A stretch of DNA of 64,000 nt, from positions 4,910 to 68,909 of the forward strand of contig CAOJUB010000002.1 in NCBI GenBank assembly GCA_948443805.1, read 5' to 3'. This document shows, one piece after another, positions 1-18,209 of this stretch. A program made the position numbers and the translations under genes. This DNA comes from an uncultured Clostridia bacterium (lineage in GTDB: Bacteria > Bacillota > Clostridia > Oscillospirales > UBA644). The notes under the pieces were generated by a model that made no database searches, was not told where the DNA came from, and was given only the letters and a program-made list of their open reading frames with translations. How positions within the stretch are numbered: position 1 is the first letter of the stretch; each line of letters begins with the position of its first letter.

Positions 1-1251
1 AGCGTGGGCGGTTGTGGCAGAACCAGAGAAAAAGTCAAGAATGATGTCGTTGTCAGAACAACCCATTTCCAAAACTTTTTCTATCAAATCTATTGGCTTC
101 GGAAAGTCAAATACTTTTAATTCATCAAAGATCGTTTTAATGAGTTTTGACCCGTCGGCTGTAGAACCAACATTTTCAAGCATTGTTCTATATGGTTTAA
201 GTCGAGGTTCAGTAGTTCTAATTTTTTCATAGACGATATATGTTCCATCATTTCTTGGTGAAAACTCAACATCGCCGTTTTTTACAGCGGCTAACATATT
301 CTCTTTACCCCAACGCCAGCGTCCTTCTATTCCGTCGTTTCTTATTGGATATACATCTTCACCATTTGGACCCGGTATAGGAAAAAACATAGTAGGTCTA
401 TCTTCGCGGCGCGAGTTAGAACCCCATTTGTTTAATTCTCGTCCACGACGATACTTGCCTTGTTCATCTTCACGGTCTAATGGTTCAGCTTCAATCAAAA
501 TTCGATTAAAAAAGCCACCTGAAACAACGGATTTTCCATAGCATATAATATATTCTTGGTCGCGTACAACAGTGTTGTTATCACTGCCGCCACCTTTTTT
601 TGACTGCCATGTAAACATACCTATAAAGTTTTCCTCCCCAAACACCTCATCACAAACCTTGCGTAGATTCGTAACCTCATTATCATCAATACTAATAAAA
701 ATCACGCCGTCATCCCGCAACAGGTTCGCCGCCAAACGCAGGCGGGGATACATCATATTCAGCCAGTTTGTATGATAGCGTCCCATCGTTTCGGGGTTGC
801 TCTTTGTAGTCTGCTGGGTGACTTCCTTATACCGCGCCATAGGATCGGCAAAATCGTCCTCATACACAAAATCGTTGCCGGTGTTGTAGGGAGGATCAAT
901 GTAGATCATCTTCACCTTGCGGTAGTAGGCGGTTTGCAGGAGCTTGAGGACTTCCAGATTGTCGCCTTCTATGTAGAGATTCTGCGTTGTGCCAAAATTG
1001 ACGCTTTCCTCCGGGCAAGGACGCAGCGTACCGGTGGAACGCTTTTGCGCCAATTTCAGGCATTCCGCTTTGCCTTTCCACTCAAACTTGTATTTTTCAA
1101 AATCGTTATCGATGTACTCACCACAGAGTGACAGAAGCTTGTCTATATCCAGTTTGCCCTCTGCAAAGCATTCGGGGAATATTGCTTTCAGCTTGTCCAT
1201 GTTGGTTTGCTCTATATTCATCGAGAGTCCGTCTAATATGTTATTTTCCAT
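1..1251 (-). CDS. Type III R-M Mod-like N6-adenine DNA methyltransferase, 5' portion only (417 codons; ORF open to the window edge, so absent from the ORF track)
   Basis: Own minus-strand translation from the ATG at 1251: MENNILDGLSMNIEQTNMDKLKAIFPECFAEGKLDIDKLL... Catalytic motif IDPPYNTGNDFVYEDDF (rc ~850-905); RELNKWGSNSRREDRPTMFFPIPGPNG (rc 361-480); AdoMet motif DIILDFFSGSATTAHA at rc 1-48. No in-frame stop down to position 1. Confidence 0.85.
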   Translation of the reverse strand, partial: MENNILDGLSMNIEQTNMDKLKAIFPECFAEGKLDIDKLLSLCGEYIDNDFEKYKFEWKGKAECLKLAQKRSTGTLRPCPEESVNFGTTQNLYIEGDNLEVLKLLQTAYYRKVKMIYIDPPYNTGNDFVYEDDFADPMARYKEVTQQTTKSNPETMGRYHTNWLNMMYPRLRLAANLLRDDGVIFISIDDNEVTNLRKVCDEVFGEENFIGMFTWQSKKGGGSDNNTVVRDQEYIICYGKSVVSGGFFNRILIEAEPLDREDEQGKYRRGRELNKWGSNSRREDRPTMFFPIPGPNGEDVYPIRNDGIEGRWRWGKENMLAAVKNGDVEFSPRNDGTYIVYEKIRTTEPRLKPYRTMLENVGSTADGSKLIKTIFDELKVFDFPKPIDLIEKVLEMGCSDNDIILDFFSGSATTAHA

Positions 1252-1256
1252 TGTTT

Positions 1257-1532
1257 TTATTCTCCTCTTACCCAATGTGTATTTGACAAACCCACACTGT
1301 ACTCTTTTAGATTCAGTAGAATTTCTCCGCGTTTAAGTTTTTCAAATGTTTCTTTTATTGATTCTATTTCATAATGATAATTGTCGCTATATTCAAACTC
1401 TTTATAATCATCTTTGAAAGTCGGATTTTTAGATAATACTCTGCCGACTACAGTTCCCGATTGATCAAACAACACATTTTCTCGACTCAACTTAGCTTTC
1501 GTATTAAGTGTAAACACAAACATATCATTCAC
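1257..1532 (-). CDS. Hypothetical 91-aa protein, translationally coupled between the SH3b protein and Mod
   Basis: ORF track. There is a 5-nt gap to the Mod start and a 6-nt gap from the upstream stop. No motif recognised. Confidence 0.5.
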   Translation of the reverse strand: MNDMFVFTLNTKAKLSRENVLFDQSGTVVGRVLSKNPTFKDDYKEFEYSDNYHYEIESIKETFEKLKRGEILLNLKEYSVGLSNTHWVRGE

Positions 1533-1538
1533 GGCTCA

Positions 1539-2396
1539 TCAACCTCTTTCCACACTGATTTTGGATACCCATCCTGTATATTCCTCACCCGATTCGTTGG
1601 TATATTTTACTTCTAACCAACGTGGTATCTCGGATACAACTTTCAATTCTGTATCGTACGAAAGAGTGCATATTATATTTGCTTTTGAATTTGCAGCTTC
1701 TCTCAAATAGGCATGTTCTTTTATAATCCAACAACATTCCGTTTCATTAAAGAACAATGCTTTTGTCTGAGCGACCATGTCTGTATAAAACTCGCAAGTT
1801 TCCGGGATTTGTGGGATAACCATAATCAGATTTAATATAAGCAATACCAACCAAAACTTTTTCTTTACATCCTCAAATTTGTCATACAACGATCTTGGCT
1901 TTTGTTTAAGCTCCTCAATTTGCAATTCAAATTCTTGAGCCACTTCTTCTTTACTAAGAACAATTTCGCCATACTTTACAGACATATCGGAAAGTATTTC
2001 TACTTCTGAGAAATCTATAGCATTAAATGCCAGCGATGACAAGGTGTTTGTGGATATTGAGTGAATTACTTCGCCAATTTGGTATTGACATTGTTCAAGC
2101 ATTCTTTGCAGTGAATCCGTAAAAAAATATGGAGAATATAATTCAGATAATTGCTGAGCTACAGAAGTTAATGGCTCAAATTCAATTTTAGGTATTTTCA
2201 ATGCAAAATCAGACATTGTCCGCATAATTGGTTGTAATGTATTTGCAATAGAAATAGAATTGGCAGCGATAGAATATTGAGATAATGCAGTGCTAATCGT
2301 ATCCAAAATAGGAGGGTGGCAGCACTGCTCAATTCTATCATATATTCGTTGCTGCCTCTCCAAAGCTTCTTCAAAAGGTGACTTTTTATCAAGCAT
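1539..2396 (-). CDS. Hypothetical 285-aa protein with one TM helix and a C-terminal bacterial SH3-like domain
   Basis: Hydrophobic segment FWLVLLILNLIMVIPQI. The C-terminus ...AYLREAANSKANIICTLSYDTELKVVSEIPRWLEVKYTNESGEEYTGWVSKISVE fits the SH3b pattern (W..V.y..G..GWV). Its start lies 1 nt after the SNF2 stop. Confidence 0.6.
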   Translation of the reverse strand: MLDKKSPFEEALERQQRIYDRIEQCCHPPILDTISTALSQYSIAANSISIANTLQPIMRTMSDFALKIPKIEFEPLTSVAQQLSELYSPYFFTDSLQRMLEQCQYQIGEVIHSISTNTLSSLAFNAIDFSEVEILSDMSVKYGEIVLSKEEVAQEFELQIEELKQKPRSLYDKFEDVKKKFWLVLLILNLIMVIPQIPETCEFYTDMVAQTKALFFNETECCWIIKEHAYLREAANSKANIICTLSYDTELKVVSEIPRWLEVKYTNESGEEYTGWVSKISVERG

Positions 2397-2397
2397 A

Positions 2398-5067
2398 TTA
2401 TATATTTTTTTCCTCCACTTTCAATACAAATTCTCTTGTGACCCTTGCGGTCAGCTTTTCTTTTTCGGTAAATTCTTTGATTTGTTCCTCTAATTCCAAA
2501 TCCAGTCGCATGGCGTCAAAAAACTGACTTTCCTGTTTCTTCATATATTCCTGCCGGAGGAGATTGATTTTTTTATCCAACGCAAGCAGCTTTAAGCGGT
2601 CATTTGTAATCGATTCCCGTTCGACTTCTGTCGCTTTTATCTGTCTGTCAAGCGCATCCAAATCATGGGTGAGAGCGGTTTTCTTTACTTTTGCCTTTAG
2701 TTTCATTTGATCGATTTCTTCCGCCTGTGATTGAGAGTATTTCTCCGATTGCCGGGCGATTAAAGCATCGACGTCAACATGACGGTCAAGCTTATGGGTT
2801 TTGCTGCCGTTTTTGAGCCAGTGGGGACTTTTATATCCTTCCTCGGTGTAGGCTTCCACAGAAAGATTCAAAATAGCTTGACATTCTTCCTCCGATAGAA
2901 TTCTATCGGACTGTGTTTTGCCAACCAACATGGGGATTTCAGTTGATATGCTGTTTGCGGAAGAGGAAAGACTGATACTATACAAACCGATTTCACACGG
3001 CTCATAAGCTTCACTCTTTACGCGCAAAGTTCCATTGTCCGCACATGTAAGTGCATGGATAATTCCTCTCCCGATAATACTTGTCAGTGTGATCCTGCTG
3101 TGACGCGGTTTGAAATCCTTTGCCATTCCGTAGGATTTCAGGCTTTGATACGGTTTATTGCGGCTGCCTGTCCAATAATAGAACAATTTCGGCAGTTCTT
3201 TGTAATTGGTGGCAGTAACGGTTTTTTCATCATCGTCGATTATATAGGTACAATCGTTGTGCGTCTCATTATATTGCTCAAAAAAGAATTTTACGATATT
3301 CCACAGTGCGACATTGATTTCCTCTGCCTTTTCACTGATATAATGAGGCGATATTGTAATTTTATCTGCAAGTTCCTTTGTGAATGTAGTAAACAGTACA
3401 TCCTCAGCAGAAGAAACAAGTTGCCTGTTTTTGGCTTCATTCTGTATCAGTGCCTGTTGATAATCGGTTTCCACCTGTGCTTTCGTGCGGATACGCTGCG
3501 ACACTGATTCAAACGCTGTATCCAAATTCTCGGTAAATCCGCCGATCACTTCATCGGTAATACCGAACACACCGTCAGCTACAAGCATTCGTTTATTAAC
3601 AAGCTCTAATTTACGCACATCGGCAAAATTGTTCTTATCAATAAACGCTAAGGAAATGACATCGTTTTCCTGCCCTAATCGGTGGCATCGGTCGATGCGC
3701 TGTTCCATTTTCAAGGTGTTATAAAGCAAATCGTAATGGATAACAAAGGCGGCGTCCTCTAAATTAAATCCTTTCGCGCCATTATCGGTAGAGAGAAGGA
3801 TTTCACCATCCGTCTTGAACTTCTGAATCGTGCTGTAATCCGTGCTGCCATTGTAAATACAGGTTTTATATTTTGGGGATAACAAGGCAGAAAGCATTTT
3901 CTGCGTTTCAACGCTTTCGGTAAAAATGACTACTTTCTTCCTTGCGCCGGATTTTTTCATCAGTGCAAATCCGTTTTTCAGCGCAATAAGCAATTGTTTT
4001 GCTTTTGTGTCCTTTGTAATACTTTCAACAACGGCCAGCATCCGCTGCCATTCGGATAGCTCGTCCTGTGCATCCGGCATCGTTTCCAGCCGTCTAACAA
4101 TGCCTTTGATCGTCTGCAAAATCGCGGCGGTTGAAGAGCTTTGCAAGCTTAAAAGCCGCAGCGCAAGGTCGTATTGATCCATTTCCGGAAAGGCAATTTT
4201 ATTCGGTTTATTTATGTAGGCATAGAGCAGGTCATACAGTTCTCGCTCTTTCGGAGACGCTGTATATTCATTTGTGATTAGAATCCGATTCGGTACTTTA
4301 GCATAATCCTTTGCCTGTGAACGAAGCGTGCGGAAGCAATATTTACTTACTCTTTCGGCAAGTTCGATATAATTCCCCGGTTTTCGCAAATAGCGCGACA
4401 GAAATTCCTGCTCATCGGGCAAAACGGTTTCATCGACAAACCAAATAAGCCCGTACAGATCCATGATATTCTTTTCTATCGGCGTCCCGGTTATCAGCAG
4501 TTTGAAAGAATCATCAGAAATGCGTTTTAATGCTTTTGCCTGTTTGCTATCTTCACGGTAAACAGAGGATAACGCGTTTGCTTCTTCAAATATTGTCAAA
4601 TCCCAGTGAACGTCTTTTGCTGCCGACTCATTATCTGTGACAAAATCATAAGTGGAAATTACGATAGCGTCCTGTAAAAAAGCATTCGTATAATCGTCGG
4701 AGATGTTGGCATTCCAATCTTCACGGTTCGTCAGAACAATATAAGGAATTGTATAATAGCGATCAATCATCTCCGTCCACTGCATGAGCAAATCGGCGTT
4801 GGGAGTGACAAGTAAAATACGACTGTGGCTTTCCACCCATTTTTGTGTGATGACAAGCATCGCCTCATGGCTTTTTCCCATTCCGGCTTCATCACAAAGT
4901 ATGACGCCTTTTTGATAGGGTGAACGCAAAGCAAAATTTGCTGCCGCAATTTGGAACGGATAAATTTTAATGTCGGAAGAAGCAAACGCAGGAACAAACC
5001 CATCCTCGCCGGACAGGCTATCCAGTATTCTTGCTGTGTAATAAGCATGAAACGGCGTTTGCTGCAT
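2398..5067 (-). CDS. SNF2-family (SF2) helicase with a long C-terminal extension and coiled coil
   Basis: Motif I LCDEAGMGKSHEAM, motif II WDLTIFEEANAL, motif VI QRIDRCHRLGQ. The track start at 5091 is a TTG; the ATG at 5067 (MQQTPFHAYY) is preceded by GGAAGGAAG. Confidence 0.9.
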   Translation of the reverse strand: MQQTPFHAYYTARILDSLSGEDGFVPAFASSDIKIYPFQIAAANFALRSPYQKGVILCDEAGMGKSHEAMLVITQKWVESHSRILLVTPNADLLMQWTEMIDRYYTIPYIVLTNREDWNANISDDYTNAFLQDAIVISTYDFVTDNESAAKDVHWDLTIFEEANALSSVYREDSKQAKALKRISDDSFKLLITGTPIEKNIMDLYGLIWFVDETVLPDEQEFLSRYLRKPGNYIELAERVSKYCFRTLRSQAKDYAKVPNRILITNEYTASPKERELYDLLYAYINKPNKIAFPEMDQYDLALRLLSLQSSSTAAILQTIKGIVRRLETMPDAQDELSEWQRMLAVVESITKDTKAKQLLIALKNGFALMKKSGARKKVVIFTESVETQKMLSALLSPKYKTCIYNGSTDYSTIQKFKTDGEILLSTDNGAKGFNLEDAAFVIHYDLLYNTLKMEQRIDRCHRLGQENDVISLAFIDKNNFADVRKLELVNKRMLVADGVFGITDEVIGGFTENLDTAFESVSQRIRTKAQVETDYQQALIQNEAKNRQLVSSAEDVLFTTFTKELADKITISPHYISEKAEEINVALWNIVKFFFEQYNETHNDCTYIIDDDEKTVTATNYKELPKLFYYWTGSRNKPYQSLKSYGMAKDFKPRHSRITLTSIIGRGIIHALTCADNGTLRVKSEAYEPCEIGLYSISLSSSANSISTEIPMLVGKTQSDRILSEEECQAILNLSVEAYTEEGYKSPHWLKNGSKTHKLDRHVDVDALIARQSEKYSQSQAEEIDQMKLKAKVKKTALTHDLDALDRQIKATEVERESITNDRLKLLALDKKINLLRQEYMKKQESQFFDAMRLDLELEEQIKEFTEKEKLTARVTREFVLKVEEKNI

Positions 5068-5094
5068 TTTGTACTTCCTTCCATTTATCAAGAT

Positions 5095-5210
5095 TTATGT
5101 CTTGAAACCTTTATAGTAGTAGCTGTGGTCGATGCCTTCATTTAGACCTAATGACTATGAATATCATCGGTTAGAGCAGCTTTGAGAATATGTTTAATAG
5201 GACTGTTTGC
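5095..5210 (-). pseudogene. Decayed ghost of a fic gene 3' end
   Basis: The nucleotide sequence aligns by eye to the 3' end of the intact fic gene (5377-5525). Translation gives KHILKAALTDDIHSH* and, in another frame, GLNEGIDHSYYYKGFKT*, versus KHILKAALTNDIHSREVYMKGIDHSYYYEGYSTFKTEEL in the intact copy. Confidence 0.6.
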
Positions 5211-5414
5211 TCAAATCAACACTTCCCATTTGCCGTATCTCTTTCCACTTTCTCTGCGGATATAGTTCTTTTCCTGCAAAGATTTCATCAGTCGTTTTAC
5301 GGTGCTGAGGGATTTACATTGATGTTCCAAAGTGTCAAATTGACACTTTGGAATTAAAAAATGATACTTTGGGATTTTACAATTCCTCCGTCTTAAAGGT
5401 CGAATACCCCTCAT
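5211..5414 (-). pseudogene. Probable remnant ORF encoding only a C-terminal winged-helix segment
   Basis: The 67-aa ORF overlaps the fic 3' end. Only the tail SLSTVKRLMKSLQEKNYIRRESGKRYGKWEVLI looks like the wHTH that ends large Fic or AlbA_2-type proteins. The N-terminal part is Arg/Lys junk. Confidence 0.4.
5325..5353. repeat. Perfect 14-bp inverted repeat with a 1-nt centre (ttccaaagtgtcaa a ttgacactttggaa), plus a third half-site-like copy at 5361-5373
   Basis: Read directly from the sequence. It lies 24 nt downstream of the fic stop, and no T-run follows on either strand. Confidence 0.6.
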
Positions 5415-5982
5415 AGTAATAACTGTGGTCGATGCCTTTCATATAGACCTCACGGCTATGGATATCGTTTGTCAGAGCAGCCTTGAGGATATGTTTGATT
5501 TCGATATCCTTAATCGGACTACGCTCCATGGCAAGCAGGTAATCCTCTCTATCTACCTTGCTCCAGTCGACTATCTTACCGATCTCCTTCTTAAAGATGC
5601 AATCCAACCAAATGCGTGTACTTCTGCCGTTGCCTTCACGGAAAGGGTGAGCAATATTCATTTCAACATACTTTTCGATGATTTCATCAAAGTTGGACTG
5701 AGGCATTTTATCAATGTTTGCAAGTGCTGCTTCAAGATACATCAGCGGTGCAAAACGAAAGTTACCTTTTGAAATGTTTACAGTGCGTATCTCTCCGGCA
5801 AAAAAATAAATATCGTCAAACAGGTATTTATGAATCGCTTTCAATGATTCGAATTTGCCTGCTTCTAATTTATCGAGAATCCCGTTTCCAAAAAGTTCGA
5901 TTGCTTTCTTTTTACTGATTCTTTCTTCCGCTTCGGCAATTTCGGGCGAGCTGGTAATGCCTAATTTATTTTTAGGCGCCAT
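5377..5982 (-). CDS. fic: Fic-domain protein (AMP-transferase family), class III with a C-terminal auto-inhibitory helix
   Basis: Fic motif HPFREGNGRSTR and C-terminal S-x-x-x-E-G (SYYYEG). The start was chosen at MAPKNK (ATG 5980-5982), 1 nt after the HTH stop; the track start at 6033 overlaps the HTH gene. Confidence 0.9.
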   Translation of the reverse strand: MAPKNKLGITSSPEIAEAEERISKKKAIELFGNGILDKLEAGKFESLKAIHKYLFDDIYFFAGEIRTVNISKGNFRFAPLMYLEAALANIDKMPQSNFDEIIEKYVEMNIAHPFREGNGRSTRIWLDCIFKKEIGKIVDWSKVDREDYLLAMERSPIKDIEIKHILKAALTNDIHSREVYMKGIDHSYYYEGYSTFKTEEL

Positions 5983-5983
5983 A

Positions 5984-6205
5984 TTATTTATCCCCCTTTG
6001 TTTCGTCGGGAATAAGTTCCATGATATCGCCAATATCGCAGTTCAGGGCAGCGCAAATTTTTGTGAGGGTATCTACGGTCACATTTTCGCCCTTCGTCAT
6101 TTTTGTTATGGTATAATTACTGACATCGGCAACACGGCATAAATCTTTTTTCTTCATGTCGTGATCGATCAGTAGTTTCCAGAGTTTTTTATAACTAACA
6201 GCCAT
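5984..6205 (-). CDS. XRE/Cro-C1-type HTH protein (73 aa), putative antitoxin or regulator of fic
   Basis: MAVSYKKLWKLLIDHDMKKKDLCRVADVSNYTITKMTKGENVTVDTLTKICAALNCDIGDIMELI is a typical HTH_3 sequence. The RBS gaggtg precedes the ATG at 6205. The 195-aa track ORF is an upstream over-extension. Confidence 0.85.
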   Translation of the reverse strand: MAVSYKKLWKLLIDHDMKKKDLCRVADVSNYTITKMTKGENVTVDTLTKICAALNCDIGDIMELIPDETKGDK

Positions 6206-6246
6206 ATAGCACACCTCGAAAAACTGGAATATAGTTTTACAGATAT

Positions 6247-6275
6247 AGTATATCACAATTTTATACAAATTGCAA
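6247..6275 (-). promoter_or_regulatory. Sigma-70-like promoter for HTH-fic (TTGCAA-N17-TATACT)
   Basis: rc: ttgcaa tttgtataaaattgtga tatact, located about 40 nt upstream of the HTH start. Confidence 0.45.
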
Positions 6276-6448
6276 CAGCATAACAAAGCGATAACTTTAT
6301 TTTTGATTGATAACTCTCTAAACTTTAACGTAAAAACAACTTTCAAGCTAAAAATCGATACCTCGCACATGACTTTGTGTGTTCTTCGCCGTAACCGGGG
6401 CACCGATTTGCACGGCCAAAGCGGTATAATTATGGTAAAAAGTAGCCC

Positions 6449-6507
6449 TGTTCTATGAGAAATTCTAAGAATTGCTTTTAGAAATTTCTTAGAACTCGAG
6501 CAAAAGC
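6449..6507 (+). repeat. Copy A of an imperfect ~59-bp direct repeat (partner at 17964-18022)
   Basis: Collinear identical blocks gttctat / aaattctaa / tagaactcga at the same offsets in both copies. I counted about 38 of 59 identities without gaps. Confidence 0.5.
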
Positions 6508-6638
6508 ATAGATCCTTTGCGACATTGATTTTGACACGGTTTTCGAGATGTCCCAAAAAGCCTAAAAACACGGCGATTTTCAGGCTTCCTGTAACTTCCT
6601 TTATCTTCCGTCAGATTCAGTTAACTTCTGTTTTGCGT

Positions 6639-6700
6639 GAATGACTCGAAATCAGTTTGGGAGCAATCCCACGCGGGTTCGAATCCCGCCCTCTGCGCCA
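6639..6700 (+). tRNA. 3' fragment (~62 nt) of a class II tRNA-Ser(CGA)-like gene; the 5' half is missing (att-site-type remnant)
   Basis: Anticodon arm aatga-CTCGAAA-tcagt, variable-arm hairpin tggga-gcaa-tccca, T-arm gcggg-ttcgaat-cccgc, acceptor 3' strand cctctgc + g + cca. No complementary 5' acceptor strand (gcagagg) or D-arm is present upstream. Confidence 0.7.
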
Positions 6701-6729
6701 ACGCGGCTTATGTCCGCGCAAAAAATAAG

Positions 6730-6754
6730 CTGCAAGGAATTCCTTGCGGCTTTT
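6730..6754 (+). terminator. Hairpin (gcaagg-aatt-ccttgc) plus T-run directly downstream of the tRNA fragment
   Basis: A perfect 16-nt palindrome at 6732-6747 is followed by ggctttt. Confidence 0.55.
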
Positions 6755-6778
6755 CACATATGAAAGGACTGCCCATCT

Positions 6779-7273
6779 ATGGCATCAAGAAAACCGATTG
6801 TCCGGCAAACAGCATGGCTGTCTCTCATTCCGCAGATATTGTTTATAGGTGCTTTATACATAATTTATAGTTTCTTTATTGAGTCTAAACTTTTCTCCAT
6901 TTACCTTACATTGCTTACGTATTTGTTTCTTTCTATAACTTTAAGATCTTCCTTATCACGCTACCACAGAAAAGGGATGACTCTTGTTAAAAAAGAAAAA
7001 TATGAACAGGCAATAGAAGCATTTCAAAAAAGTTATTCGTTTTTTTCAAAATATACATGGATTGATCAGTACCGATTTATTACAATGCTTTCCTCCAGTA
7101 AAATTTCATATCGGGAAATGGCGCTCCTAAATATTGCTTTTTGCTATTCGCAAATTGATAACGGAAAAAATTCAAAAGATTATTACTTAAAAACGATTCA
7201 GTATTTTCCGAATAGTGAAGTCGCTAAAGCATCCTTAAAGATGATTCGATCTATTAAAAACCAAAACGAATAA
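6779..7273 (+). CDS. Hypothetical membrane protein (2 TM) with a TPR-like C-terminal half
   Basis: The ORF track shows hydrophobic stretches WLSLIPQILFIGALYIIYSFF and LFSIYLTLLTYLFLSI, then EKYEQAIEAFQKSYSFF...ALLNIAFCYSQIDN. Confidence 0.5.
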   Translation: MASRKPIVRQTAWLSLIPQILFIGALYIIYSFFIESKLFSIYLTLLTYLFLSITLRSSLSRYHRKGMTLVKKEKYEQAIEAFQKSYSFFSKYTWIDQYRFITMLSSSKISYREMALLNIAFCYSQIDNGKNSKDYYLKTIQYFPNSEVAKASLKMIRSIKNQNE

Positions 7274-7557
7274 TTCTCTCTCGTTCTCTAAACAAAATTC
7301 TGTAAATTTTAAAACATTTGGCAAAACAAAGAAAAAAGATGTATAAACGGTTTGAGCGGGCAAATGAATCTCCTCATTCACTTTCTCACGGACTTGTATT
7401 ACGATTGGTTGAACAAAGCCAAACAGGCACGGGACGAATATCTCGCAGGCCAAATGTCAGCGGAAGAGGCGCTTCGTATTATTACAGCAGAATAAAAAAA
7501 CAGGCAGCGGGCAAGGTCAACATCGAGTTGATTTTATTCGCTGCCTATCTTGATATT

Positions 7558-7834
7558 TTATTTATTATCCGTGTTCTGCACCACTTCGATAAGCAGCTGC
7601 ACTGCAAGTTTGAAGCCGGCGGTGAAAACCTGCAATTTTTTCATACCGTGCAGTTTGGATTCACCGTTTTTGAACTTTTCAAATATCTCTTTCTGCCGTT
7701 CGTTGAGTGTTGCTATCAAATCATCCTGATATCGGATGATATATCATAACATTTCACCGTATGAGCTCCCACGCTTAAAGCTGCATTCCTTCAGAATTTG
7801 TTGCCGTAATATAAATCTTCAAGTGTTGTCCTAT
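7558..7834 (-). pseudogene. Decayed small helical-protein gene of a type I associate with Firmicutes conjugative or mobile elements
   Basis: RBS aaggag + 9 nt + ATA (not ATG). There are three frame-broken pieces: HLKIYITATNSEGMQL*, ..SSYGEML*, and RYQDDLIATLNERQKEIFEKFKNGESKLHGMKKLQVFTAGFKLAVQLLIEVVQNTDNK*. The family resemblance is from memory only. Confidence 0.4.
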
Positions 7835-7931
7835 GTATTGTATCTCCTTTTGCAACACATAGATATAATACAAGATCTTTCACAGATCCAACTTTTTTCC
7901 GATATAAAATCAAAAGTACCGCGAATACGCT

Positions 7932-8123
7932 TTATTCTTGTTCTTCGGTTATTGACAAATCGATATAACAATCCTTACTTTTAAAACTTCTGCGCAAATA
8001 ATCGTGACCACCATCTACAGCGCAAGCACCACATTTACATTTTACATATTCATGGCGATCCGTTGATTCAATAATATCTCCGCATAATTTGCATTGAATT
8101 GCATTCTTAATGATCTTTCGCAT
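7932..8123 (-). CDS. Small Cys-rich zinc-ribbon protein (63 aa)
   Basis: MRKIIKNAIQCKLCGDIIESTDRHEYVKCKCGACAVDGGHDYLRR... carries CxxC...CxCxxC. The RBS aaggag lies 8 nt before the ATG at 8123. It is the last gene of the minus-strand operon. Confidence 0.6.
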   Translation of the reverse strand: MRKIIKNAIQCKLCGDIIESTDRHEYVKCKCGACAVDGGHDYLRRSFKSKDCYIDLSITEEQE

Positions 8124-8189
8124 ATGACGATCTCCTTTGTAGTACAACAACATGCCACAGGGATTTTATGAAGTCCATAGAAAACATAT

Positions 8190-10997
8190 TTATTCCGCAA
8201 GGGTCTGTTTTCTTTCAATATCGCTACAAACCATTCGTGTTACATAATTTGCATCGTGTTTACAGGTTTCAATAATATATTCATACGATTCTTTGGTAAT
8301 GCCAGGAACATGTAGAATATGTTGTAAAATCAAATTTTTAATATACACATTATCACGCTCGATCAACGAAACAATATGGCGATTAATAATTTCTCGATTA
8401 TCCGTATTTCGTAATAGCGCTAATAAAATCCTTGTGGAATTCCAACGTATATCAACATAATCTGTATGCATCCACGCAAAAGCATAATGAAGTATGGTTG
8501 TTTCTATCGGCTTCTGAAAAGCCACATTAGAAGACAGTTCTAAGTAATTAGCAATAAAACTCGTAACAGAAATTGTTGTTGCGATATTATCTTTAAGATA
8601 AGGGAATAATTCGAGTAAATCCGCATGCACATCAATACCCATAGCAGAAAATAATATTTTAAGGCTAATAGTCAATGCAATGTTATCAATATTAGATGAG
8701 AACGGAAAACTGTCACCGGCTATTATTTGTGATTCATTTTCTAATATATTTCTATAGATATCTTTATTATGTTCATACGATTTAGGATATTTTTCAATTA
8801 TGCAACATAACAGAGCAACCGCATCCATTTTAGTAGATAGTGATTCGCTTGACTCAAGCAAAGTTTGAGATACTGCTAAAATTATAGAATCAATTAAGAC
8901 ATCTTCATATTGTTGATCGCTATCTAATAATATCGATTTAATTGTGGCAATTTCTCTTGTTCCGTGACCAAAATACCTGCCGTTCTTTCCTTGTGTTTCG
9001 TTATTATTCTTGACTATTTCAAGATTCTTATTTAAGAATACCGGGTAATCTGAAACTTTATTCTCTGTAGTTTCAAGTCGATAATTATTGTAATAAAATT
9101 CCGGCAAATATGTCTCTACGGTTTTATCGAGTTCATTAGTTAATTCGCGATTTTGATTTCTAATTACACACAGAAAAAAAGGACTTCGTTTTACTAATTC
9201 ACAATCATTTTGCAAAACATCAATGATACTCGCAATTAATTTTTTTGCATTTTCCTCCCGCATTTTAGTTATATCAATTCTTTTTGATATAAGTTTAAAC
9301 ATGTCCATATACCATCGGCTAAGGCGTTTCTGAACGAATTTGCAACATATTTCTGCTAAAACATCTTGTGATAATCGATGAGACACATTTGAAAGGTTTT
9401 TAAAAACACTTTCTCCAATTGAAATATTTTTGTCTTCATCATCAATCCAAGCGTAAATAATTTTTAGCATTGAAGATTCATAAAAGCGGAATTTTTCGTC
9501 ATTTAAATAATATCCAACCGTTGCAAAGCCAAGCAATTGCTGCCGTATTCTTTTATGAGTTATTGGATGCAATGAACAAAAATCCATTATTTTTTCCGCG
9601 TCAGCATCAGAAAGCTTGCTCAGTATTTCTGGGAAAGTGTTTTGAATACCTATCACTTCTTTTTCTTTTCCGCCTCTTATTGCATACTTAAGCAAATCTC
9701 TGCGAAAAGACCAATCATCATATCTGCTTGATAAATAAAAGAGGAATTCTTTTTCTTTATCAAAAAGCATAAGGATATGTGTTAATGAACCATTATACAT
9801 AGCAACTATGAATGTACTTGCCAGCAGTTTACCAAATTCGTTCAAATTTCCGCCTAAAGAAACAGTATACGGCGACTCGGTTTTATGTTTATATAATCCT
9901 TGTATATATTTTTCTTGTAACGATTCATTACACCTATCAATCACAGGATAATACAACTCATCCTGACTTTCGTCCAATTCTTTTTGTGCTTCAGATTCAA
10001 AGTAGGTATTCTTTTGTTCGCACAGTTCCCAATGTTGATTTCGTAGATCAATCAAAATATCCTTTATAATCCACGAGGGTTGTTTTGTTTCTTTTGCAAT
10101 CTTAAGCGCATCACTGAGGTACTTTACGCTATCATCTATCTTTCCATTAAAATATGATTGAATTGCTTGCCATCTTAAACTAACAACATTAAAAACCTCT
10201 TTGTCTTGAATAGATTTCAAGCACTCTAAAAACATTGAAACATTAAACTCTTTAATAGTTTTCCCTTCGAACATGATTGGGAGAAACTGAACTCCCCAAT
10301 CATCCAGTTCACTGGTCTGTATAGGATCGTCCGGAAAGCGAGAAAATGATATTCCTGTAATAGAGCGCAATATATAATCTGTAGTTTTATCAATATTCTT
10401 TAGTACAGATTTTGGGAAACTCATGTTTTGACAAGTACTTACAGAAGTTATGTCAATGTCTTTTGTAGACTCCCATTCTGTTTCAGACATTGAGATTTTC
10501 CCTTGACAATAATAATGATAAATGCGAACTATATCACTCAACAATGCTGTTGCACCATTTTTACTAAGGTCGTTAAAGGTGTGCACAGTTTTACTTTTTG
10601 TAAAATTTGCACCCATTAAGCTTTTTTCTAATGGCGTTTTTTCTTTTTGATTTTCATCACAAAAATAGTATAATGCTTTGATCTTATTTCGCTGTACCAC
10701 ATCTATTTCTGCTTTTACGCCATCCGGTATCCCGTCAGCATTATCAATAAGAAAAATACATATATCAGAATCTTCAAGCGCAAAAGTATAATGTACTCCC
10801 GCGCTAAGTGTGGATGCTTCTTCACCCTCAAATGTATACACTTCTGCCAAACCAGTTTTTTCGATAGATTCTTTGAGTTCAGCACGAATAGGATCATACT
10901 TTGGAGGTTCCTCAGCCCTATCGCACTTTGAACTGATAAAAACCTTGATTTTTTGTGACGGTATTACTTGCATACTTTCTTTTTTTTGATTAATCAT
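8190..10997 (-). CDS. 935-aa protein: N-terminal DUF4062-like (TIR/deoxyribosyltransferase-like Rossmannoid) domain plus ~800 aa of TPR/HEAT-like helical repeats
   Basis: The N-terminus KVFISSKCD..IRAELKESIEKTGLAEVYTFEGEEAS...SDICIFLIDNADG..GVKAEIDVV..KIKALYYF follows the DUF4062 pattern as I remember it. The rest is helical-repeat-like (e.g. SVKYLSDALKIAKETKQPSWIIKDILIDLRN; IRWNSTRILLALLRNTDNREIINRHIVSLIE). No Walker A/B motif was seen. Confidence 0.7.
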   Translation of the reverse strand: MINQKKESMQVIPSQKIKVFISSKCDRAEEPPKYDPIRAELKESIEKTGLAEVYTFEGEEASTLSAGVHYTFALEDSDICIFLIDNADGIPDGVKAEIDVVQRNKIKALYYFCDENQKEKTPLEKSLMGANFTKSKTVHTFNDLSKNGATALLSDIVRIYHYYCQGKISMSETEWESTKDIDITSVSTCQNMSFPKSVLKNIDKTTDYILRSITGISFSRFPDDPIQTSELDDWGVQFLPIMFEGKTIKEFNVSMFLECLKSIQDKEVFNVVSLRWQAIQSYFNGKIDDSVKYLSDALKIAKETKQPSWIIKDILIDLRNQHWELCEQKNTYFESEAQKELDESQDELYYPVIDRCNESLQEKYIQGLYKHKTESPYTVSLGGNLNEFGKLLASTFIVAMYNGSLTHILMLFDKEKEFLFYLSSRYDDWSFRRDLLKYAIRGGKEKEVIGIQNTFPEILSKLSDADAEKIMDFCSLHPITHKRIRQQLLGFATVGYYLNDEKFRFYESSMLKIIYAWIDDEDKNISIGESVFKNLSNVSHRLSQDVLAEICCKFVQKRLSRWYMDMFKLISKRIDITKMREENAKKLIASIIDVLQNDCELVKRSPFFLCVIRNQNRELTNELDKTVETYLPEFYYNNYRLETTENKVSDYPVFLNKNLEIVKNNNETQGKNGRYFGHGTREIATIKSILLDSDQQYEDVLIDSIILAVSQTLLESSESLSTKMDAVALLCCIIEKYPKSYEHNKDIYRNILENESQIIAGDSFPFSSNIDNIALTISLKILFSAMGIDVHADLLELFPYLKDNIATTISVTSFIANYLELSSNVAFQKPIETTILHYAFAWMHTDYVDIRWNSTRILLALLRNTDNREIINRHIVSLIERDNVYIKNLILQHILHVPGITKESYEYIIETCKHDANYVTRMVCSDIERKQTLAE

Positions 10998-10998
10998 G

Positions 10999-11620
10999 CT
11001 AACGTATCCACCTTATTTTTTCTTTGTCTGAGTCATAGCTTATATCCTCAAGCATCATTTCACGATCTTGTTTTGGAAGGCTGTTTATATACTTATCCCA
11101 ATCTAAAATAGAATAATTAAAGAATGTGAACTTTTCCTTGTTCTTTTTATAGTAATTCTCTGCTGGCAAACATAGGATCATACAAAGTCTTCTTACACTA
11201 ACGCTATATTCGCGGTGCTCTACGCCATCATTATCTATTGTTAGTGTTCCTGCTTCACCACCATATATTTTAAAAGGTTTTTCAGTTTCAATAACTATTT
11301 TAAAGTGTTCAATAGGACAATTTTTCTGATTATGGCGTTTCTTATATTCGTCATTATCAAGATTAGGGTTCCCTTGATGAAATAGTGGACCTCTAAAATT
11401 ATATACAATTTCCCCACTCAAATAAGGCATGTCCGGCACTCCATCCATGGGAGGAGATTTTTTGTATTTCCCGATATGCTCTATAACGGATTGTAGAGCC
11501 CTTATTGGGATATTCAGCTTTGCCGCATATATCGGGAAGCGTTAGCGCTAATGATAAAGCAGCAAAATACAAATTATGAGATAAAGCTGTATTTATCTCT
11601 TCAATAAGTTTTATTATCAA
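10999..11620 (-). pseudogene. HEPN-like (R-x4-H) protein gene split by a frameshift in an A6 (T6 on +) tract
   Basis: ORFs 11399-11620 and 10999-11448 overlap in different frames. Joining them at the run at 11458-11463 gives ...STIRYRAYREIQK|KSPPMDGVPDMPYLSGEIVYNFRGPLFHQGNPNLD... (about 207 aa). The N-terminal helix is YFAALSLALTLPDICGKAEYP and the R-x4-H motif is RGPLFH. Its stop is 1 nt before the start of the 935-aa gene. Confidence 0.55.
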
Positions 11621-11641
11621 AGCACAATCCTCCTTTGCCGA

Positions 11642-12713
11642 CTAATTACCTTTCAAATATTTCATAAGCTGTACGGTTGCTTTGCTACGTCCCTGAACGC
11701 TTGAAAGACCGTTTTCTTTAAGTTCTCTCAGCGGATACTTGTCCGGGGCGTATTTTTCTATGAGCTTTAATCCCATATAACGGATGTCGGAATCTTTAGC
11801 CAACTCCTTATAATAGGGATAGTCCTCGTCCGAGCGGTTCCCGTACAAATCGGCGGCAATTACTTCGCATTTATACATAATGGCCTTGTATTTTTCACCG
11901 ACGTAAATATAAACGGTATCGCCAACCGACGTATTGGTGGACTGGCGCCATTCGATTACGTCCAAACTATCAAAAGCGGCTACAATATCGTAATATTTCG
12001 GATTGCACGGAATCACCCATACGTCATCAAGCCGAGAGAAAACCTGACGTCCTTCAGCTTTTGCACGAATATCATTTAACCACTCGCCGTTATACTTAAA
12101 ATAACGCGGTCCGGCAACACCCCATTTGCTACCGAGCAGTTCGGTGGCAAGGGCAGAAAGAGACAATTTTCTACCCTCATATTCCACGGTCTTATCGTCA
12201 ATAACGCTACACTGTGCACCGGAGTTTGCATTACCCTGACTAACAAACGTAATGGTAGCGCCTACGGGAATATTACACTTAGAGAATGTGAACGGTGCCA
12301 TGCGCTCGATGTGTTGTTCTTCGATATCCTGTGCCAGTTCTTCGCTCTGTCGTTCTACCGCCGTCGGCTCATACAAGTGAAGTCTATCTTTGCGACCGCC
12401 TAATACAGCGATGGTTTCAAGGATAGAATACGCCTGTTCGGGCGACATAGCGTAAAACTCACGCACTCGATTTTTACCGTCTACGTTGTCAATAGAGCGC
12501 AGATTAGGATTGAGTTGGTCGATCAGAGCATGGAGCTTTAAATCCGTCAAGCGTTCATCAACCTCGTATGTAGCATAAATGCGGAAAGAAAACGGAATGC
12601 ACTCGCTGTTATTCAGTTGTTTTAACCGTGATTCCACGTTATCGGCATAACCGATTTTTACGTATTGAGGGAATGACGGGTTTTCCAGAATATATTACTC
12701 CAGATTCTTTCAT
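11642..12713 (-). pseudogene. GIY-YIG superfamily (T5orf172/MUG113-type) N-terminus + unassigned middle module + C-terminal EVE/PUA-like domain; the 5' end is frameshifted
   Basis: The RBS gaggtg plus ATG at 12713 opens MKESGVIY..., which stops after 24 codons. The main frame reads *YILENPSFPQYVKIGYADNVESRLKQLNNSECIPFSFRIYATYEV...EFY. The C-terminus is VWVIPCNPKYYDIVAAFDSLDVIEWRQSTNTSVGDTVYIYVGEKYKAIMYKCEV. The track start at 12637 is an internal GTG. Confidence 0.6.
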
Positions 12714-12736: not shown

Positions 12737-15493
12737 TTATTGCACACAAAACCGCATCTTTTGCATTGAAAGCAACGATTGTTTAATTGACTCATAATGT
12801 TCCTCTATACCATAAGCACGTAAAACGGTAATGTCAAAATTACGCCTATCCTCCAGGGTCAACTCAACACTTGTATGCTCGACTTGTCTATCTAATAAAG
12901 GTTCAAACGCTTCTAAAATTGCATTCTTATTTTCATTAGATAAGAGTTCAGGATTAAGCATAAATGCATTTCTAATTGTTGTGCTACTTATATCTAAGGC
13001 TCCAAGCCCTCTTCCAAAACCAACCGCCTCAATATAAAACATTCCTAATATTGAATTCAATAATGCATGATATAATGATACTTCTGTATATCCAGATTTC
13101 TTTTTCAAACCAATAAGTCTTTGGTTAATAAAAGTCGGCTCATCAAACTTGGCAAAAAACAACCTTCTATCAGGATTCATAGTTGTTACTATATCAGCGG
13201 TATTGGTCGATGCCATTTCATACCATTGCATATTTCTTCTTGCTAAAACTTCAGGCAATGGACGGCCTACGCCATTTACACCATTTTGGAATCGTGCTAT
13301 CCAAGATAATGCACCTTGATGATTTTGCATCCTCAATTCATCTAAACTTAACGCACAACAAAAAGCATCATTATCTGCTTCGGCTTTAAGAGTATCTATG
13401 TTTCTTGCATTTTTAAGCACCTTTTTAATATATACTTCTTCGATGCCGTGCCCATTTTCAGGATAAAACATTGTGTCCCAACCACGGCGTTCTCCACGAA
13501 CAACAGTAAAAACAGTAGAAATAGGGCACAGTTTTTCTCTGATATCAAGTAACCAGCGTATGTTGTGGAAAAGAGCTGAAAGAGAAACGTTCATATCAGC
13601 CAATGCTGCGATTTCTGATTTTGAATACTGCTTATAGCTCATTATACTATCATTAATTTCTCTGTTCAACAAAGATGAATTTACAATAGTATCACGTATA
13701 GATGTATCTGCGTAAATTTCAGATAATTTGTTGTGCCAAACGCAAAACGCTGTTTGTTCACCATCAGTGGGATGTTCGATATGATCTTTTTTAGAAAAAA
13801 TCGTGATTATCGTAACCACCTGTGCATTATTAAACCAGCGTTCCGCATCGCTGATGTGTATTTGATCGATTTTATAATAAAAGCCAAGTGCCTTAAATAA
13901 TTCCTTTCCCGCTGTCGTACCCAACCAAGAATTTGAAGTGATTATTCCTAAACGACCATTATTTTCAATAATTTCATATAACGAAAACAAAATATATGAA
14001 TAATAATCACTTCTATTGCTTAAAGCAATATTGGTATGTTGCAGGACATTTTCTCTAATGGTATTAATATATCTCCAGTCACTATCGGATATTTTTTCAA
14101 AAGGGATAAAAGGCAAATTAGAAACTACCGTATCAAACTTCGGAATTTGAAATGTCATCGCTTCACCATTAATTGGATTGGTGATATTGATTTCATCGCC
14201 TTCTCGCAATTCAAAAACATTTTTTTGAAATATTTTGTTGGGAAGGTTAATTGCTTCGACATTTGTCATACTTATGGTTGCCAATTGTAATGGAAGTGAG
14301 AACTTATCTTCCGCCCAAGTTGAATTAACGGCATTTTCGATATTCCCCAGGTTATCCCTTTTATTATTCAATATAGCTTTTGGAATAGAGCCCGTGCCAC
14401 AACAAGGATCTATCGCATTACCAGACCAATTTAGCGTTGTCAAACAAACTAATAATTCTGCTAATATATCCGGGGTAGTAAACTGACCATTTAACTCTCT
14501 TTTAGTAATAGCTACAGTTTTCTCGAGAACATTTTGAAGAGTACCTTGCTCAATTTGACGAAGTCCATTGTCTTTTAAGAAAATATTTAAATCCATCAGA
14601 TCATGCCAAGTGTCCGCTGGGATGTGGTCATTATGTTCTATACTATTAAAAATATTAAAAAAGTCACATGTTGCAGTAATATTTTGAAAGATTTCGTTTG
14701 CATGATTTACTTCAGACTCAAAATCTAATGTTTCAATAGTCAGAGCACCATTATGACGCGATTTTATTAAATGCGCAAAAATGATTCTGTTAGTCCAATT
14801 TATAAGAAGTGCTTTAGCATATGCATCATACATATTAGTTTCATCATAGGTGTACTCTGTTTGTACTTCGTTCCACCATACTGATAAAAACGCATTGATT
14901 CTTGCATCTAAAACAGCTGCACTATGCAATTCTGCGCTGACCAATGTTTTGTTTCGTTCAATAATTTTGGAAATAATTGTATCCGATAAAAATTCACCAA
15001 TCTCTGTTCCGCGAATATCGCCTGATATTAAGAATGCATTTATTTCTATAAGTATTCTTTCGATAATTGGCAGCCACTCATTTTTGTATCTTTCAACATC
15101 TTCTCGTGTTTGTATATGGTTGGTTTCATTCCACTGCCGAACAATCTCGAACTCATCATCTTCATTTTTTACATATAGCACACCTGCTGTAAAGTTCCAT
15201 ATAAAACAACTATTCAGTCCTAATGAACGTGCTTTACGTATCGCATCTTCAATAAAAGCATTGTCAGTTATGGTGGTATCGGGCAGTTTCAACTCCCAAC
15301 CTTGCAGAATTTGTGTTTGATTCTCGTCGCCATAAAGCAACACATCTGGGAACATGCTTCTATGGCCTGTTGAAATCGTACTTTCTCCTCCTGCTCTTAC
15401 GATTCGCAAGCCCATAGTTTGCAGTTTAATATTTATATCTGAAATCATAGAGATTGCCCAACTACGTTCATTTCGTCTTACTATTGTCGGCAT
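12737..15493 (-). CDS. Type IIG (Eco57I-like) bifunctional restriction endonuclease / gamma-class N6-adenine methyltransferase, 918 aa
   Basis: N-terminal PD-(D/E)xK candidate FPDVLLYGD...QGWELKLPD. MTase motif I NAIDPCCGTGSIPKA precedes motif IV VVSNLPFIPF. A long C-terminal region is consistent with a target-recognition domain. Confidence 0.65.
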   Translation of the reverse strand: MPTIVRRNERSWAISMISDINIKLQTMGLRIVRAGGESTISTGHRSMFPDVLLYGDENQTQILQGWELKLPDTTITDNAFIEDAIRKARSLGLNSCFIWNFTAGVLYVKNEDDEFEIVRQWNETNHIQTREDVERYKNEWLPIIERILIEINAFLISGDIRGTEIGEFLSDTIISKIIERNKTLVSAELHSAAVLDARINAFLSVWWNEVQTEYTYDETNMYDAYAKALLINWTNRIIFAHLIKSRHNGALTIETLDFESEVNHANEIFQNITATCDFFNIFNSIEHNDHIPADTWHDLMDLNIFLKDNGLRQIEQGTLQNVLEKTVAITKRELNGQFTTPDILAELLVCLTTLNWSGNAIDPCCGTGSIPKAILNNKRDNLGNIENAVNSTWAEDKFSLPLQLATISMTNVEAINLPNKIFQKNVFELREGDEINITNPINGEAMTFQIPKFDTVVSNLPFIPFEKISDSDWRYINTIRENVLQHTNIALSNRSDYYSYILFSLYEIIENNGRLGIITSNSWLGTTAGKELFKALGFYYKIDQIHISDAERWFNNAQVVTIITIFSKKDHIEHPTDGEQTAFCVWHNKLSEIYADTSIRDTIVNSSLLNREINDSIMSYKQYSKSEIAALADMNVSLSALFHNIRWLLDIREKLCPISTVFTVVRGERRGWDTMFYPENGHGIEEVYIKKVLKNARNIDTLKAEADNDAFCCALSLDELRMQNHQGALSWIARFQNGVNGVGRPLPEVLARRNMQWYEMASTNTADIVTTMNPDRRLFFAKFDEPTFINQRLIGLKKKSGYTEVSLYHALLNSILGMFYIEAVGFGRGLGALDISSTTIRNAFMLNPELLSNENKNAILEAFEPLLDRQVEHTSVELTLEDRRNFDITVLRAYGIEEHYESIKQSLLSMQKMRFCVQ

Positions 15494-15498
15494 ATTCT

Positions 15499-16350: not shown

Positions 16351-16467
16351 TATTTTTGCTCCTATAACATTCTTGAGTTAATTTTCCAAACTGTATCATC
16401 CAAAACGAGATGATTAGGTTATTTCAGCCTAACACCGTTTTATTGTGGTCGGCTTCCAGCTTTACTT

Positions 16468-18154: not shown

Positions 18155-18209
18155 TTTACCTCGATTTTACAGGATCAGGATAACGGATTTGATGTTTGGC
18201 CGGTATAAT
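18155..18209 (+). promoter_or_regulatory. Pho box (four hexamers at 11-bp phase: tttacc/tttaca/aggata/tttgat) + 10 nt + TATAAT; pstS promoter
   Basis: Hexamers sit at 18155, 18166, 18177 and 18188, with the -10 at 18204-18209. The same geometry recurs at 24592 and 28118. Confidence 0.65.

Follow-up and report, generated by a model that had tools for sequence, protein, structure and literature searches.

Type III restriction-modification (R-M) is regarded as a two-gene system made up of mod and res. At the left end of a 64,000-nucleotide (nt) stretch of DNA from an uncultured Clostridia bacterium (contig CAOJUB010000002.1, positions 4,910–68,909; the whole stretch is referred to here as the window), a type III methyltransferase gene is preceded by a gene for an SNF2-family ATPase and by two small genes, which raises the question of whether these additional genes belong to the restriction system, to a different defense system or to neither. 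Comparison of the locus with its relatives shows that the invariant core is SNF2, Mod and Res in this order, that is, a type III R-M system with a permanently associated SNF2-family motor.

The open reading frames (ORFs) for SNF2, the two small proteins and Mod all lie on the minus strand. The SNF2-family ATPase, the conserved first gene of the cassette, occupies 2398–5067 (889 amino acids (aa), SNF2-rel_dom and Helicase_C domains) and is followed by the gene for a 285-aa protein at 1539–2396 (a helical N-terminal region, one transmembrane (TM) segment and a C-terminal SH3b domain), by that for a 91-aa protein at 1257–1532 (GTG start, mostly beta strand, no known family), and by the gene for type III Mod at 1–1251, which encodes the N-terminal 417 of 772 aa, the rest of the gene lying beyond the window's left end. 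The gaps of 1, 6, and 5 nt between these ORFs, noted in the preliminary description of the locus, are correct for the start codons chosen there. The longest SNF2 ORF (2398–5091) gives 897 aa from a TTG codon, and the gene callers and all homologues use the ATG at 5067; most homologues of the 91-aa protein begin at an ATG three codons in (position 1523, 88 aa), in which case the gap is 15 nt and not 6. Shine-Dalgarno-like motifs sit within the 3' ends of the upstream genes, and the four genes may be translationally coupled.

The left flank and the SNF2-Mod-Res order

The DNA beyond window position 1 was read from a twin contig (L001, 173 kb), which serves as a proxy for it, is 99.88% identical to window positions 1–12410 and is one of 22 public contigs that encode the 285-aa protein. 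To the left of the window, L001 carries the rest of Mod, a 120-aa 23S-rRNA-IVP gene, Res (1049 aa), RecQ, and a UG5-type DRT reverse transcriptase. The Res protein contains ResIII and RE_endonuc domains, matches the PADLOC model REase_III with E = 0 and has the motifs GTGKT, DEPQ, SAT, QKVGRGLR (QxxGRGLR), and PD..ETK (PD..ExK); its score with NCBIfam PRK15483 is 374 bits, under the cut-off of 564 for that model. The preliminary description had considered either res or drmA, drmB and drmC as the content of this flank, and L001 contains a type III Res and no drm genes.

The methyltransferase matches N6_N4_Mtase PF01555 (3e-32) and PADLOC MTase_III (4.6e-140) and holds both IDPPYN and DFFSGSATTAHA (the FxGxG S-adenosylmethionine motif), in agreement with its initial assignment as a type III Mod from the DPPY motif. 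Its target recognition domain (TRD, aa 201–380) is only 27–33% identical among loci, with flanks that are 79–91% identical, and the breakpoint of the TRD swap relative to the alleles of one sister variant lies at window position 664. This variant (L003, L005, and L006) has another Mod TRD, and an OLD-like ATPase replaces the 23S-rRNA-IVP gene. The full-length Mod is encoded at 11146–13464 of L001 and has a DUF559 (Vsr-like endonuclease) domain at aa 511–610, inserted between the methylase core and the C-terminal domain, in which the usual acidic and His residues are kept. The Mods of nearly all other loci are without DUF559 (620–690 aa).

The SNF2 protein matches Pfam SNF2-rel_dom (8.7e-24) and Helicase_C (3e-14), and in a profile search against the PDB the matches are confined to the helicase core. 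Its best named matches are models of DrmD (PADLOC PDLC02619, 1.8e-88; NCBIfam DrmD_b, 1.6e-85). Motifs I, III, and VI are intact, whereas motif II (residues 159–164) reads FEEAN in the Clostridial clade in place of the usual DEAH, which is retained by the proteobacterial relatives. The family comprises at least 1100 protein clusters, of which the best 120 are all at least 65% identical over the full length. The ratio of nonsynonymous to synonymous substitutions (dN/dS) is 0.09–0.11. Both Mod and Res evolve more slowly than SNF2, as would be expected if SNF2 is exposed to phage counter-measures.

The neighborhood of SNF2 was surveyed with one genome per species in 80 Clostridia loci, seeded with SNF2 at 49–86% identity, and SNF2, Mod, and Res were mapped by tblastn. 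Mod lies downstream of SNF2 on the same strand in 67 loci, and in 12 of the remaining 13 the sequence ends with less than 700 nt left. The complete order SNF2, Mod, Res on one strand is present in 51 of the 55 informative species-level loci; despite more than 4 kb of downstream DNA, Mod is missing only in L082 and Res only in L028, L053, and L091. Sampling in the opposite direction, with viral contigs selected by Res, gave SNF2 upstream in all three informative loci, where SNF2 is just 38–39% and Res 66–73% identical. A distant version with the same order is found in Proteobacteria (E. coli, Salmonella, and Aeromonas), with SNF2 29–30% identical over ~600 aa. In E. coli CFSAN064036 and on Salmonella IncFIB plasmids the genes read HTH_17, SNF2, an interval with an insertion sequence (IS), Abi_2 and a 69-aa ORF, N6_N4 methylase, and ResIII, and in Aeromonas pMC64A they read WYL, SNF2, AAA_21 with DUF4276, and a methylase, after which the cassette is cut off by an IS. 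Of 5426 complete E. coli genomes, 30 have SNF2 of this type. The suggestion in the preliminary description of a non-canonical type III derivative with a translocase is therefore essentially right, given the Res in L001 and the synteny of SNF2 with Mod and Res in almost every relative.

Some further observations concern single loci of the survey. The E. coli locus (L143) lies at 3086131–3095600 of the CFSAN064036 chromosome, in an integrase-bounded island at tRNA-Sec, and the Salmonella locus (L141) is on an IncFIB plasmid; RefSeq names the E. coli helix-turn-helix (HTH) gene upstream of SNF2 'MAD1'. In L013, a decayed cassette at 9471–11419 (SNF2 fragments, the SH3 protein, and only the first 120 codons of Mod) follows directly after a complete Wadjet JetABCD operon. 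In L010, a 1743-aa DEAD/Helicase_C/MZB (DUF1998) helicase and two upstream genes of no recognized function occupy 1905–7136, ~200 nt upstream of SNF2. This helicase is the sole DUF1998 protein seen near any cassette and may belong to a separate Druantia- or DISARM-like system.

Cargo slots and the 285-aa and 91-aa genes

The loci vary in what lies between SNF2 and Mod (slot X) and between Mod and Res (slot Y). In 12 loci slot X is empty, with no more than 40 nt between SNF2 and Mod, and in 3 loci slot Y is empty, with ~18–52 nt between Mod and Res; Ruminococcus sp. zg-924 (L059) has cargo in neither. Elsewhere 174 ORFs, almost all in the direction of the cassette, occupy the slots and group into 77 clusters. 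Slot X carries a PIWI-domain protein with SIR2_2, HNH/CTD11 with MC6/7 and DUF2326 (ABC-3C is among the cargoes named for the two slots), Fic-wHTH, Schlafen AlbA_2 with HATPase_c_4, and IVP; slot Y carries TIR, RES, RhuM, PIN-like, DUF6414 with AAA, OLD-like, IVP, and ParE/Phd. In the proteobacterial loci the interval between SNF2 and the methylase holds Abi_2 or AAA_21 with DUF4276. Among 20 cargo-cluster representatives scanned, 9 gave no Pfam match at E ≤ 0.01.

Identical or closely similar cargo occurs on diverged scaffolds. The PIWI and SIR2 cargo is 97–99% identical between L018 and L044 (99% for PIWI), where SNF2 is 63% and Res 70% identical, and the Fic-wHTH cargo is 79% identical between L063 and L079, where SNF2 is 54% identical. 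These comparisons show that the SNF2-Mod and Mod-Res junctions swap cargo by recombination. The N-terminal 200 aa of Mod, encoded beside slot X, have a median identity of 85–91% across species, compared with 40–77% by segment for SNF2, so that recombination has a conserved anchor on the Mod side of this slot.

The window has its 285-aa and 91-aa genes inside the R-M operon, flanked by SNF2 and mod and spaced by 1–6 nt, and the pair is one of dozens of interchangeable cargoes in the variable slot. The earlier view that the two small genes fit neither textbook layout and that the SH3b protein is an accessory of the system is refined by the survey: slot X is empty in 12 loci and filled by unrelated defense genes in others, and neither gene belongs to the fixed part of the system.

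The C terminus of the 285-aa protein is a bacterial SH3 (SH3b) domain. SH3_3 matches residues 229–279 with 31.5 bits, above the gathering score of 27, and the AlphaFold2 model, which has a mean predicted local distance difference test (pLDDT) value of 54, is confident only at residues 220–285 (pLDDT 85–91), where Foldseek finds the SH3 fold of NlpC/P60 SH3b, phiSM101 endolysin, and CPE1231 SH3 in the PDB with a probability of 1.00 and E values of only 4e-3 to 1e-2. A single hydrophobic segment spans approximately residues 181–199 and is preceded by a positive cluster (KKK), and the charge pattern around it is that of an N-in, C-out topology, which suggests that the N terminus would be inside the cell and the SH3b domain outside. 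No catalytic domain was detectable in the 285-aa protein. For the 91-aa protein, Pfam, PADLOC, and NCBIfam contain nothing credible. Its ORF is uninterrupted in a 47%-identical copy as well as in nine 90% clusters, and its dN/dS is 0.18–0.5; this conservation marks it as a real gene. For the 285-aa protein, dN/dS is 0.14–0.26.

The 91-aa gene is in most cases found with that of the SH3 protein. The two occur together in the window lineage, L042, L098–L101, and L102, the SH3 protein occurs without the 91-aa partner in L009–L012 and L020, and a 91-aa relative without the SH3 protein follows PIWI and SIR2 in L073. The SH3 family comprises 11 clusters by word search and 98 representatives by HMMER, typically of 280–350 aa with a variable N terminus and a conserved juxtamembrane-TM-SH3b part. 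Among 38 metagenome loci with a relative, the relative occupies slot X of an SNF2-Mod-Res cassette in 9, adjoins a type ISP/IIG-like enzyme (2-nt gap) in 3, and adjoins an MmeI-family enzyme in 2. The SH3 protein diverges faster than the scaffold and in the same order, with cargo/SNF2 identities of 89/81, 49/68, 43/72, and 24/56%.

Upstream genes and the remaining defense island

Taken with L001, window positions 1–6205 are shown to be the 5' half of one co-directional operon, with the order HTH regulator, Fic, SNF2, 285-aa and 91-aa proteins, Mod, 23S-rRNA-IVP-like protein, Res, and RecQ, of which Fic, the 285-aa and 91-aa pair, the 23S-rRNA-IVP-like protein, and RecQ are variable content. 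The putative operon regulator is a 73-aa HTH_26 (Cro/C1-type, VanU-like) protein encoded on the minus strand at 5984–6205 (Pfam HTH_26, 7.2e-21). A gene of this family lies 11–56 nt upstream of SNF2 in ~17 other loci, whereas in the window Fic intervenes. The HTH regulator was rejected as a core part because it is directly upstream of SNF2 in only these ~17 loci. Promoter and terminator scans gave nothing above the shuffled expectation, and a strong-looking -10 box at 2397–2402, which abuts the ATG, was dismissed as probably a chance match.

The gene between the HTH gene and SNF2 (5377–5982, minus strand) encodes, as further cargo, a class III Fic (NmFic-like) adenylyltransferase of 201 aa, which scores 307 bits with NCBIfam ProtAdlyltaseNmFic (cut-off 230) and matches PADLOC PDC-S04 (6.6e-102). 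Fic is missing from most relatives, and there the HTH gene adjoins SNF2. The segment 5113–5414 (minus strand) looks like a scar left where one gene replaced another, in a third slot that lies between the HTH gene and SNF2. It is composed of an 84-nt direct repeat of the Fic 3' end (5113–5195, 83% identical to 5413–5496 by blastn) and the remnant of a 67-aa ORF (5211–5414), which has a faint likeness to the winged HTH (wHTH) C terminus of the Fic-wHTH cargo of L077 (31% over 45 aa, E of 1e-4 by blastp).

At the other end of the operon, a complete RecQ is encoded at 17072–18889 of L001, 16–19 nt after res, and passes the TIGR01389 equivalog cut-off. The window lineage and its nearest relatives (L018, L019, and L042) are alone in having RecQ after res; the position is taken by an AAA_30/UvrD_C_2 helicase in L011 and by an integrase in L098.

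To the right of the HTH gene, the island continues on the minus strand with a co-directional block at 8190–12637, encoding a 935-aa protein without a Pfam or PADLOC match (split into 458 and 477 aa in L001), a 149-aa protein, and a 331-aa PDC-S57 candidate-defense protein. A second group at 12737–17769, also on the minus strand, encodes a type IIG-like 918-aa N6_Mtase/Eco57I protein, a 283-aa N6_N4 methylase, and a 433-aa Schlafen AlbA_2 and HATPase_c_4 protein. The low-GC island stops at the operon of the phosphate transporter gene pstS, which begins at 18189 and where the GC content rises from ~37% to ~50%.

Proposed mechanism, alternatives, and comparison with known systems

We consider it likely that the locus is a conserved SNF2-Mod-Res type III operon in which the 285-aa and 91-aa genes are first-slot cargo and form an accessory membrane module. 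From knowledge of the families, Mod would methylate a short asymmetric site on a single strand, and incoming DNA that lacks this methylation would be cleaved by Res. SNF2 is predicted to be a double-stranded DNA-dependent ATPase and most likely acts as an accessory translocase on DNA, where its task may be to clear invading DNA that is covered by protein, to sense such DNA, or to govern the timing of Res action; its place beside Mod would be comparable to that of DrmD beside DrmMI in class 1 DISARM. The slot genes could be accessory or back-up defenses co-expressed with the operon, as are PrrC, TgvAB, and the insertions in Hma operons. By analogy with PrrC in EcoprrI and with TgvAB, the 285-aa and 91-aa proteins would then form an accessory second-line, envelope-associated module that is co-expressed with the restriction enzyme, the 285-aa protein being anchored in the membrane, with its fast-evolving N-terminal domain in the cytoplasm and its SH3b domain outside, where it would bind the cell wall.

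Several points weigh against this interpretation. The role of SNF2 is one that we infer from synteny only, and the FEEAN motif II in the Clostridial clade means that ATPase activity is not assured. The SNF2-seeded survey by itself cannot show that this Res clade never lacks SNF2, the reverse test consisting of three informative loci. Some slot genes, such as 23S-rRNA-IVP and ParE/Phd, may be selfish rather than defensive. The N-terminal 200 residues of the 285-aa protein have a low-confidence model and no fold match, and for the 91-aa protein the AlphaFold2 model has a pLDDT of 61 and no Foldseek match better than E = 0.3; neither fold points to a function. The rest of the 38 metagenome relatives of the SH3 protein are in mixed or unresolved contexts, many of them without an R-M gene. 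Finally, the divergence of the SH3 protein in step with the scaffold means that, judged from sequence comparison, it could be a long-standing lineage-specific partner and not freely mobile cargo.

In another reading the 285-aa protein, with the 91-aa protein, is a membrane and cell-wall tether that places an SNF2/Mod/Res complex where phage or conjugative DNA enters. The predicted N-in, C-out topology with KKK before the TM segment and SH3b outside, the co-divergence with the scaffold, the tight coupling of relatives to three R-M classes, and the co-directional arrangement with 1-nt spacing are all in line with it. Against it, the slot is empty in 12 loci and holds unrelated cargo in most others, many family members have no R-M neighbor, and the N-terminal model is unreliable, so that we regard it as rather unlikely. 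We assign a similarly low likelihood to a further reading, in which the two proteins make up a membrane module for superinfection exclusion or abortive infection that is independent of restriction and only hitch-hikes in the operon. Self-contained systems are known among the other slot cargoes (PIWI and SIR2, ABC-3C, OLD, TIR, ParE/Phd), family members exist outside R-M loci, for example on a conjugative element, and a single TM segment with SH3b outside would suit a protein that acts at the envelope; yet ~14 of the 38 metagenome relatives adjoin R-M genes, and the pair has no match to a known superinfection-exclusion or abortive-infection family in PADLOC or Pfam. It is very improbable that the whole arrangement is a chance juxtaposition of an unrelated SNF2 gene and two small genes upstream of an ordinary mod-res pair in a crowded island. 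The window island (1–17.8 kb) is full of unrelated defense genes and SNF2 helicases are common in such islands, but the order SNF2, Mod, Res recurs in the 51 of 55 informative loci, is kept in cargo-free loci where the genes abut or overlap, and is found again in the Res-selected loci and in a second phylum, while the neighboring genes are wholly different between loci.

The remaining alternative follows from the DISARM-like reading of the preliminary description and places these genes, as DrmD and DrmMI, at the proximal end of a class 1 DISARM locus with DrmA, DrmB, and DrmC left of the window. Class 1 DISARM has a core triplet of DrmA (helicase), DrmB (DUF1998/MZB), and DrmC (PLD) and the methylase DrmMI of PF13659. 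The class 1 layout likewise places an SNF2-family helicase just before an N6-adenine methylase, and the best named SNF2 matches are DrmD models, as described above. The DNA left of the window in L001 encodes Res, RecQ, and DRT, with no helicase and DUF1998 gene or PLD gene, and no DrmA, DrmB, or DrmC was found within 10 kb on either side (L001 downstream and the window island). The SNF2 score with the DrmD_b equivalog NF038318 is 287.9 bits, far under the cut-off of 950, and that with NF038317 is 102 bits against 610. The methylase belongs to PF01555/type III and not to PF13659, no DrmMI model is among the 25 listed of its 30 PADLOC matches, and the nuclease is a type III Res. The left flank, the score cut-offs, and the methylase family thus refute a DISARM-like proximal part, as far as the genome left of position 1 matches its 99.9%-identical twin, and we consider this alternative to have next to no likelihood.

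Beyond the likely SNF2-Mod-Res operon with its slot cargo, a broader proposal is that these loci form an unnamed type III subclass in at least two phyla, in which SNF2 is an obligatory third component, the two junctions are a shared site of exchange for a large and mostly uncharacterized set of defense genes, and the TM/SH3b and 91-aa proteins act as a new guardian at the membrane when restriction fails. We regard this as possible but doubtful. In a keyword search of the literature, with incomplete coverage, no account of a type III cassette associated with SNF2 came up, and an earlier description is possible. If the conserved SNF2 partner is real, a motor protein would be the third component of a whole type III clade, which is common in gut Clostridia and has a distant version in E. 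coli and Salmonella. The cassette would then give a tractable handle on the role of SNF2 proteins such as DrmD beside methylases. The proteobacterial version is a tractable model. The two cargo slots are also a guide to new defense genes; because the recognizable cargo consists of abortive-infection or toxin modules, the unassigned genes, including the 285-aa and 91-aa pair, are good candidates for new immunity genes. Current tools, as judged from the models tested, would call these loci plain type III R-M with a stray 'DrmD-like' helicase.

When compared with canonical type III systems of the EcoP15I/EcoP1I type, the window locus has the same beta-class Mod with DPPY, FxGxG, and a swappable TRD, the same Res with SF2 motifs and a C-terminal PD-ExK nuclease, and the same position of mod upstream of res on one strand. 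Canonical type III enzymes hemimethylate an asymmetric site, and their ATP-dependent cleavage requires a pair of unmethylated sites in inverse orientation. It thus has both the Mod and the Res of type III R-M but departs from the two-gene definition, with a conserved SNF2 gene before mod and extra genes between SNF2 and mod and between mod and res; in the window lineage, the Mod also has its DUF559 insert and RecQ follows res. In the Hma and BREX-related systems, which are centered on DUF499, an SNF2 helicase and a methylase are likewise in one operon, whereas here the nuclease is a separate type III Res. The assignments Hma, BR, and Gao_RL were rejected, as neither L001 nor the window has a DUF499/BrxC-like ATPase or a NOV_C/REase fusion on SNF2, and the best HmaA match of SNF2 is only 7.6e-26, in the helicase core. 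The MADS system (mad1–8) shares the marking of self DNA by methylation, and also the 'MAD1' RefSeq label on the HTH gene of the E. coli relative. MADS methylates a bipartite motif and has MAD6, MAD7, and MAD8 as mandatory components, and the paper describing it mentions no SNF2 or helicase. It was rejected since mad6–8 are not among the listed PADLOC matches of the operon proteins (the best 25 for SNF2 and RecQ), the sole MADS match being a weak one to mad3 for the OLD-like insert of L003.

The embedding of defense genes in R-M-like operons is itself documented for PrrC, TgvAB, and Hma. PrrC in EcoprrI is a guardian that fires upon inhibition of the R-M enzyme, which keeps it inactive until a phage anti-restriction factor intervenes, and approximately two thirds of Hma operons have other defense genes inserted between their core genes. 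PrrC and TgvAB (V. cholerae VPI-2) share with the window locus accessory defense genes that are located in an R-M operon and co-expressed with it. These are type I loci with one known cargo each, in contrast to the type III scaffold described here, which has two slots and at least 77 cargo clusters.

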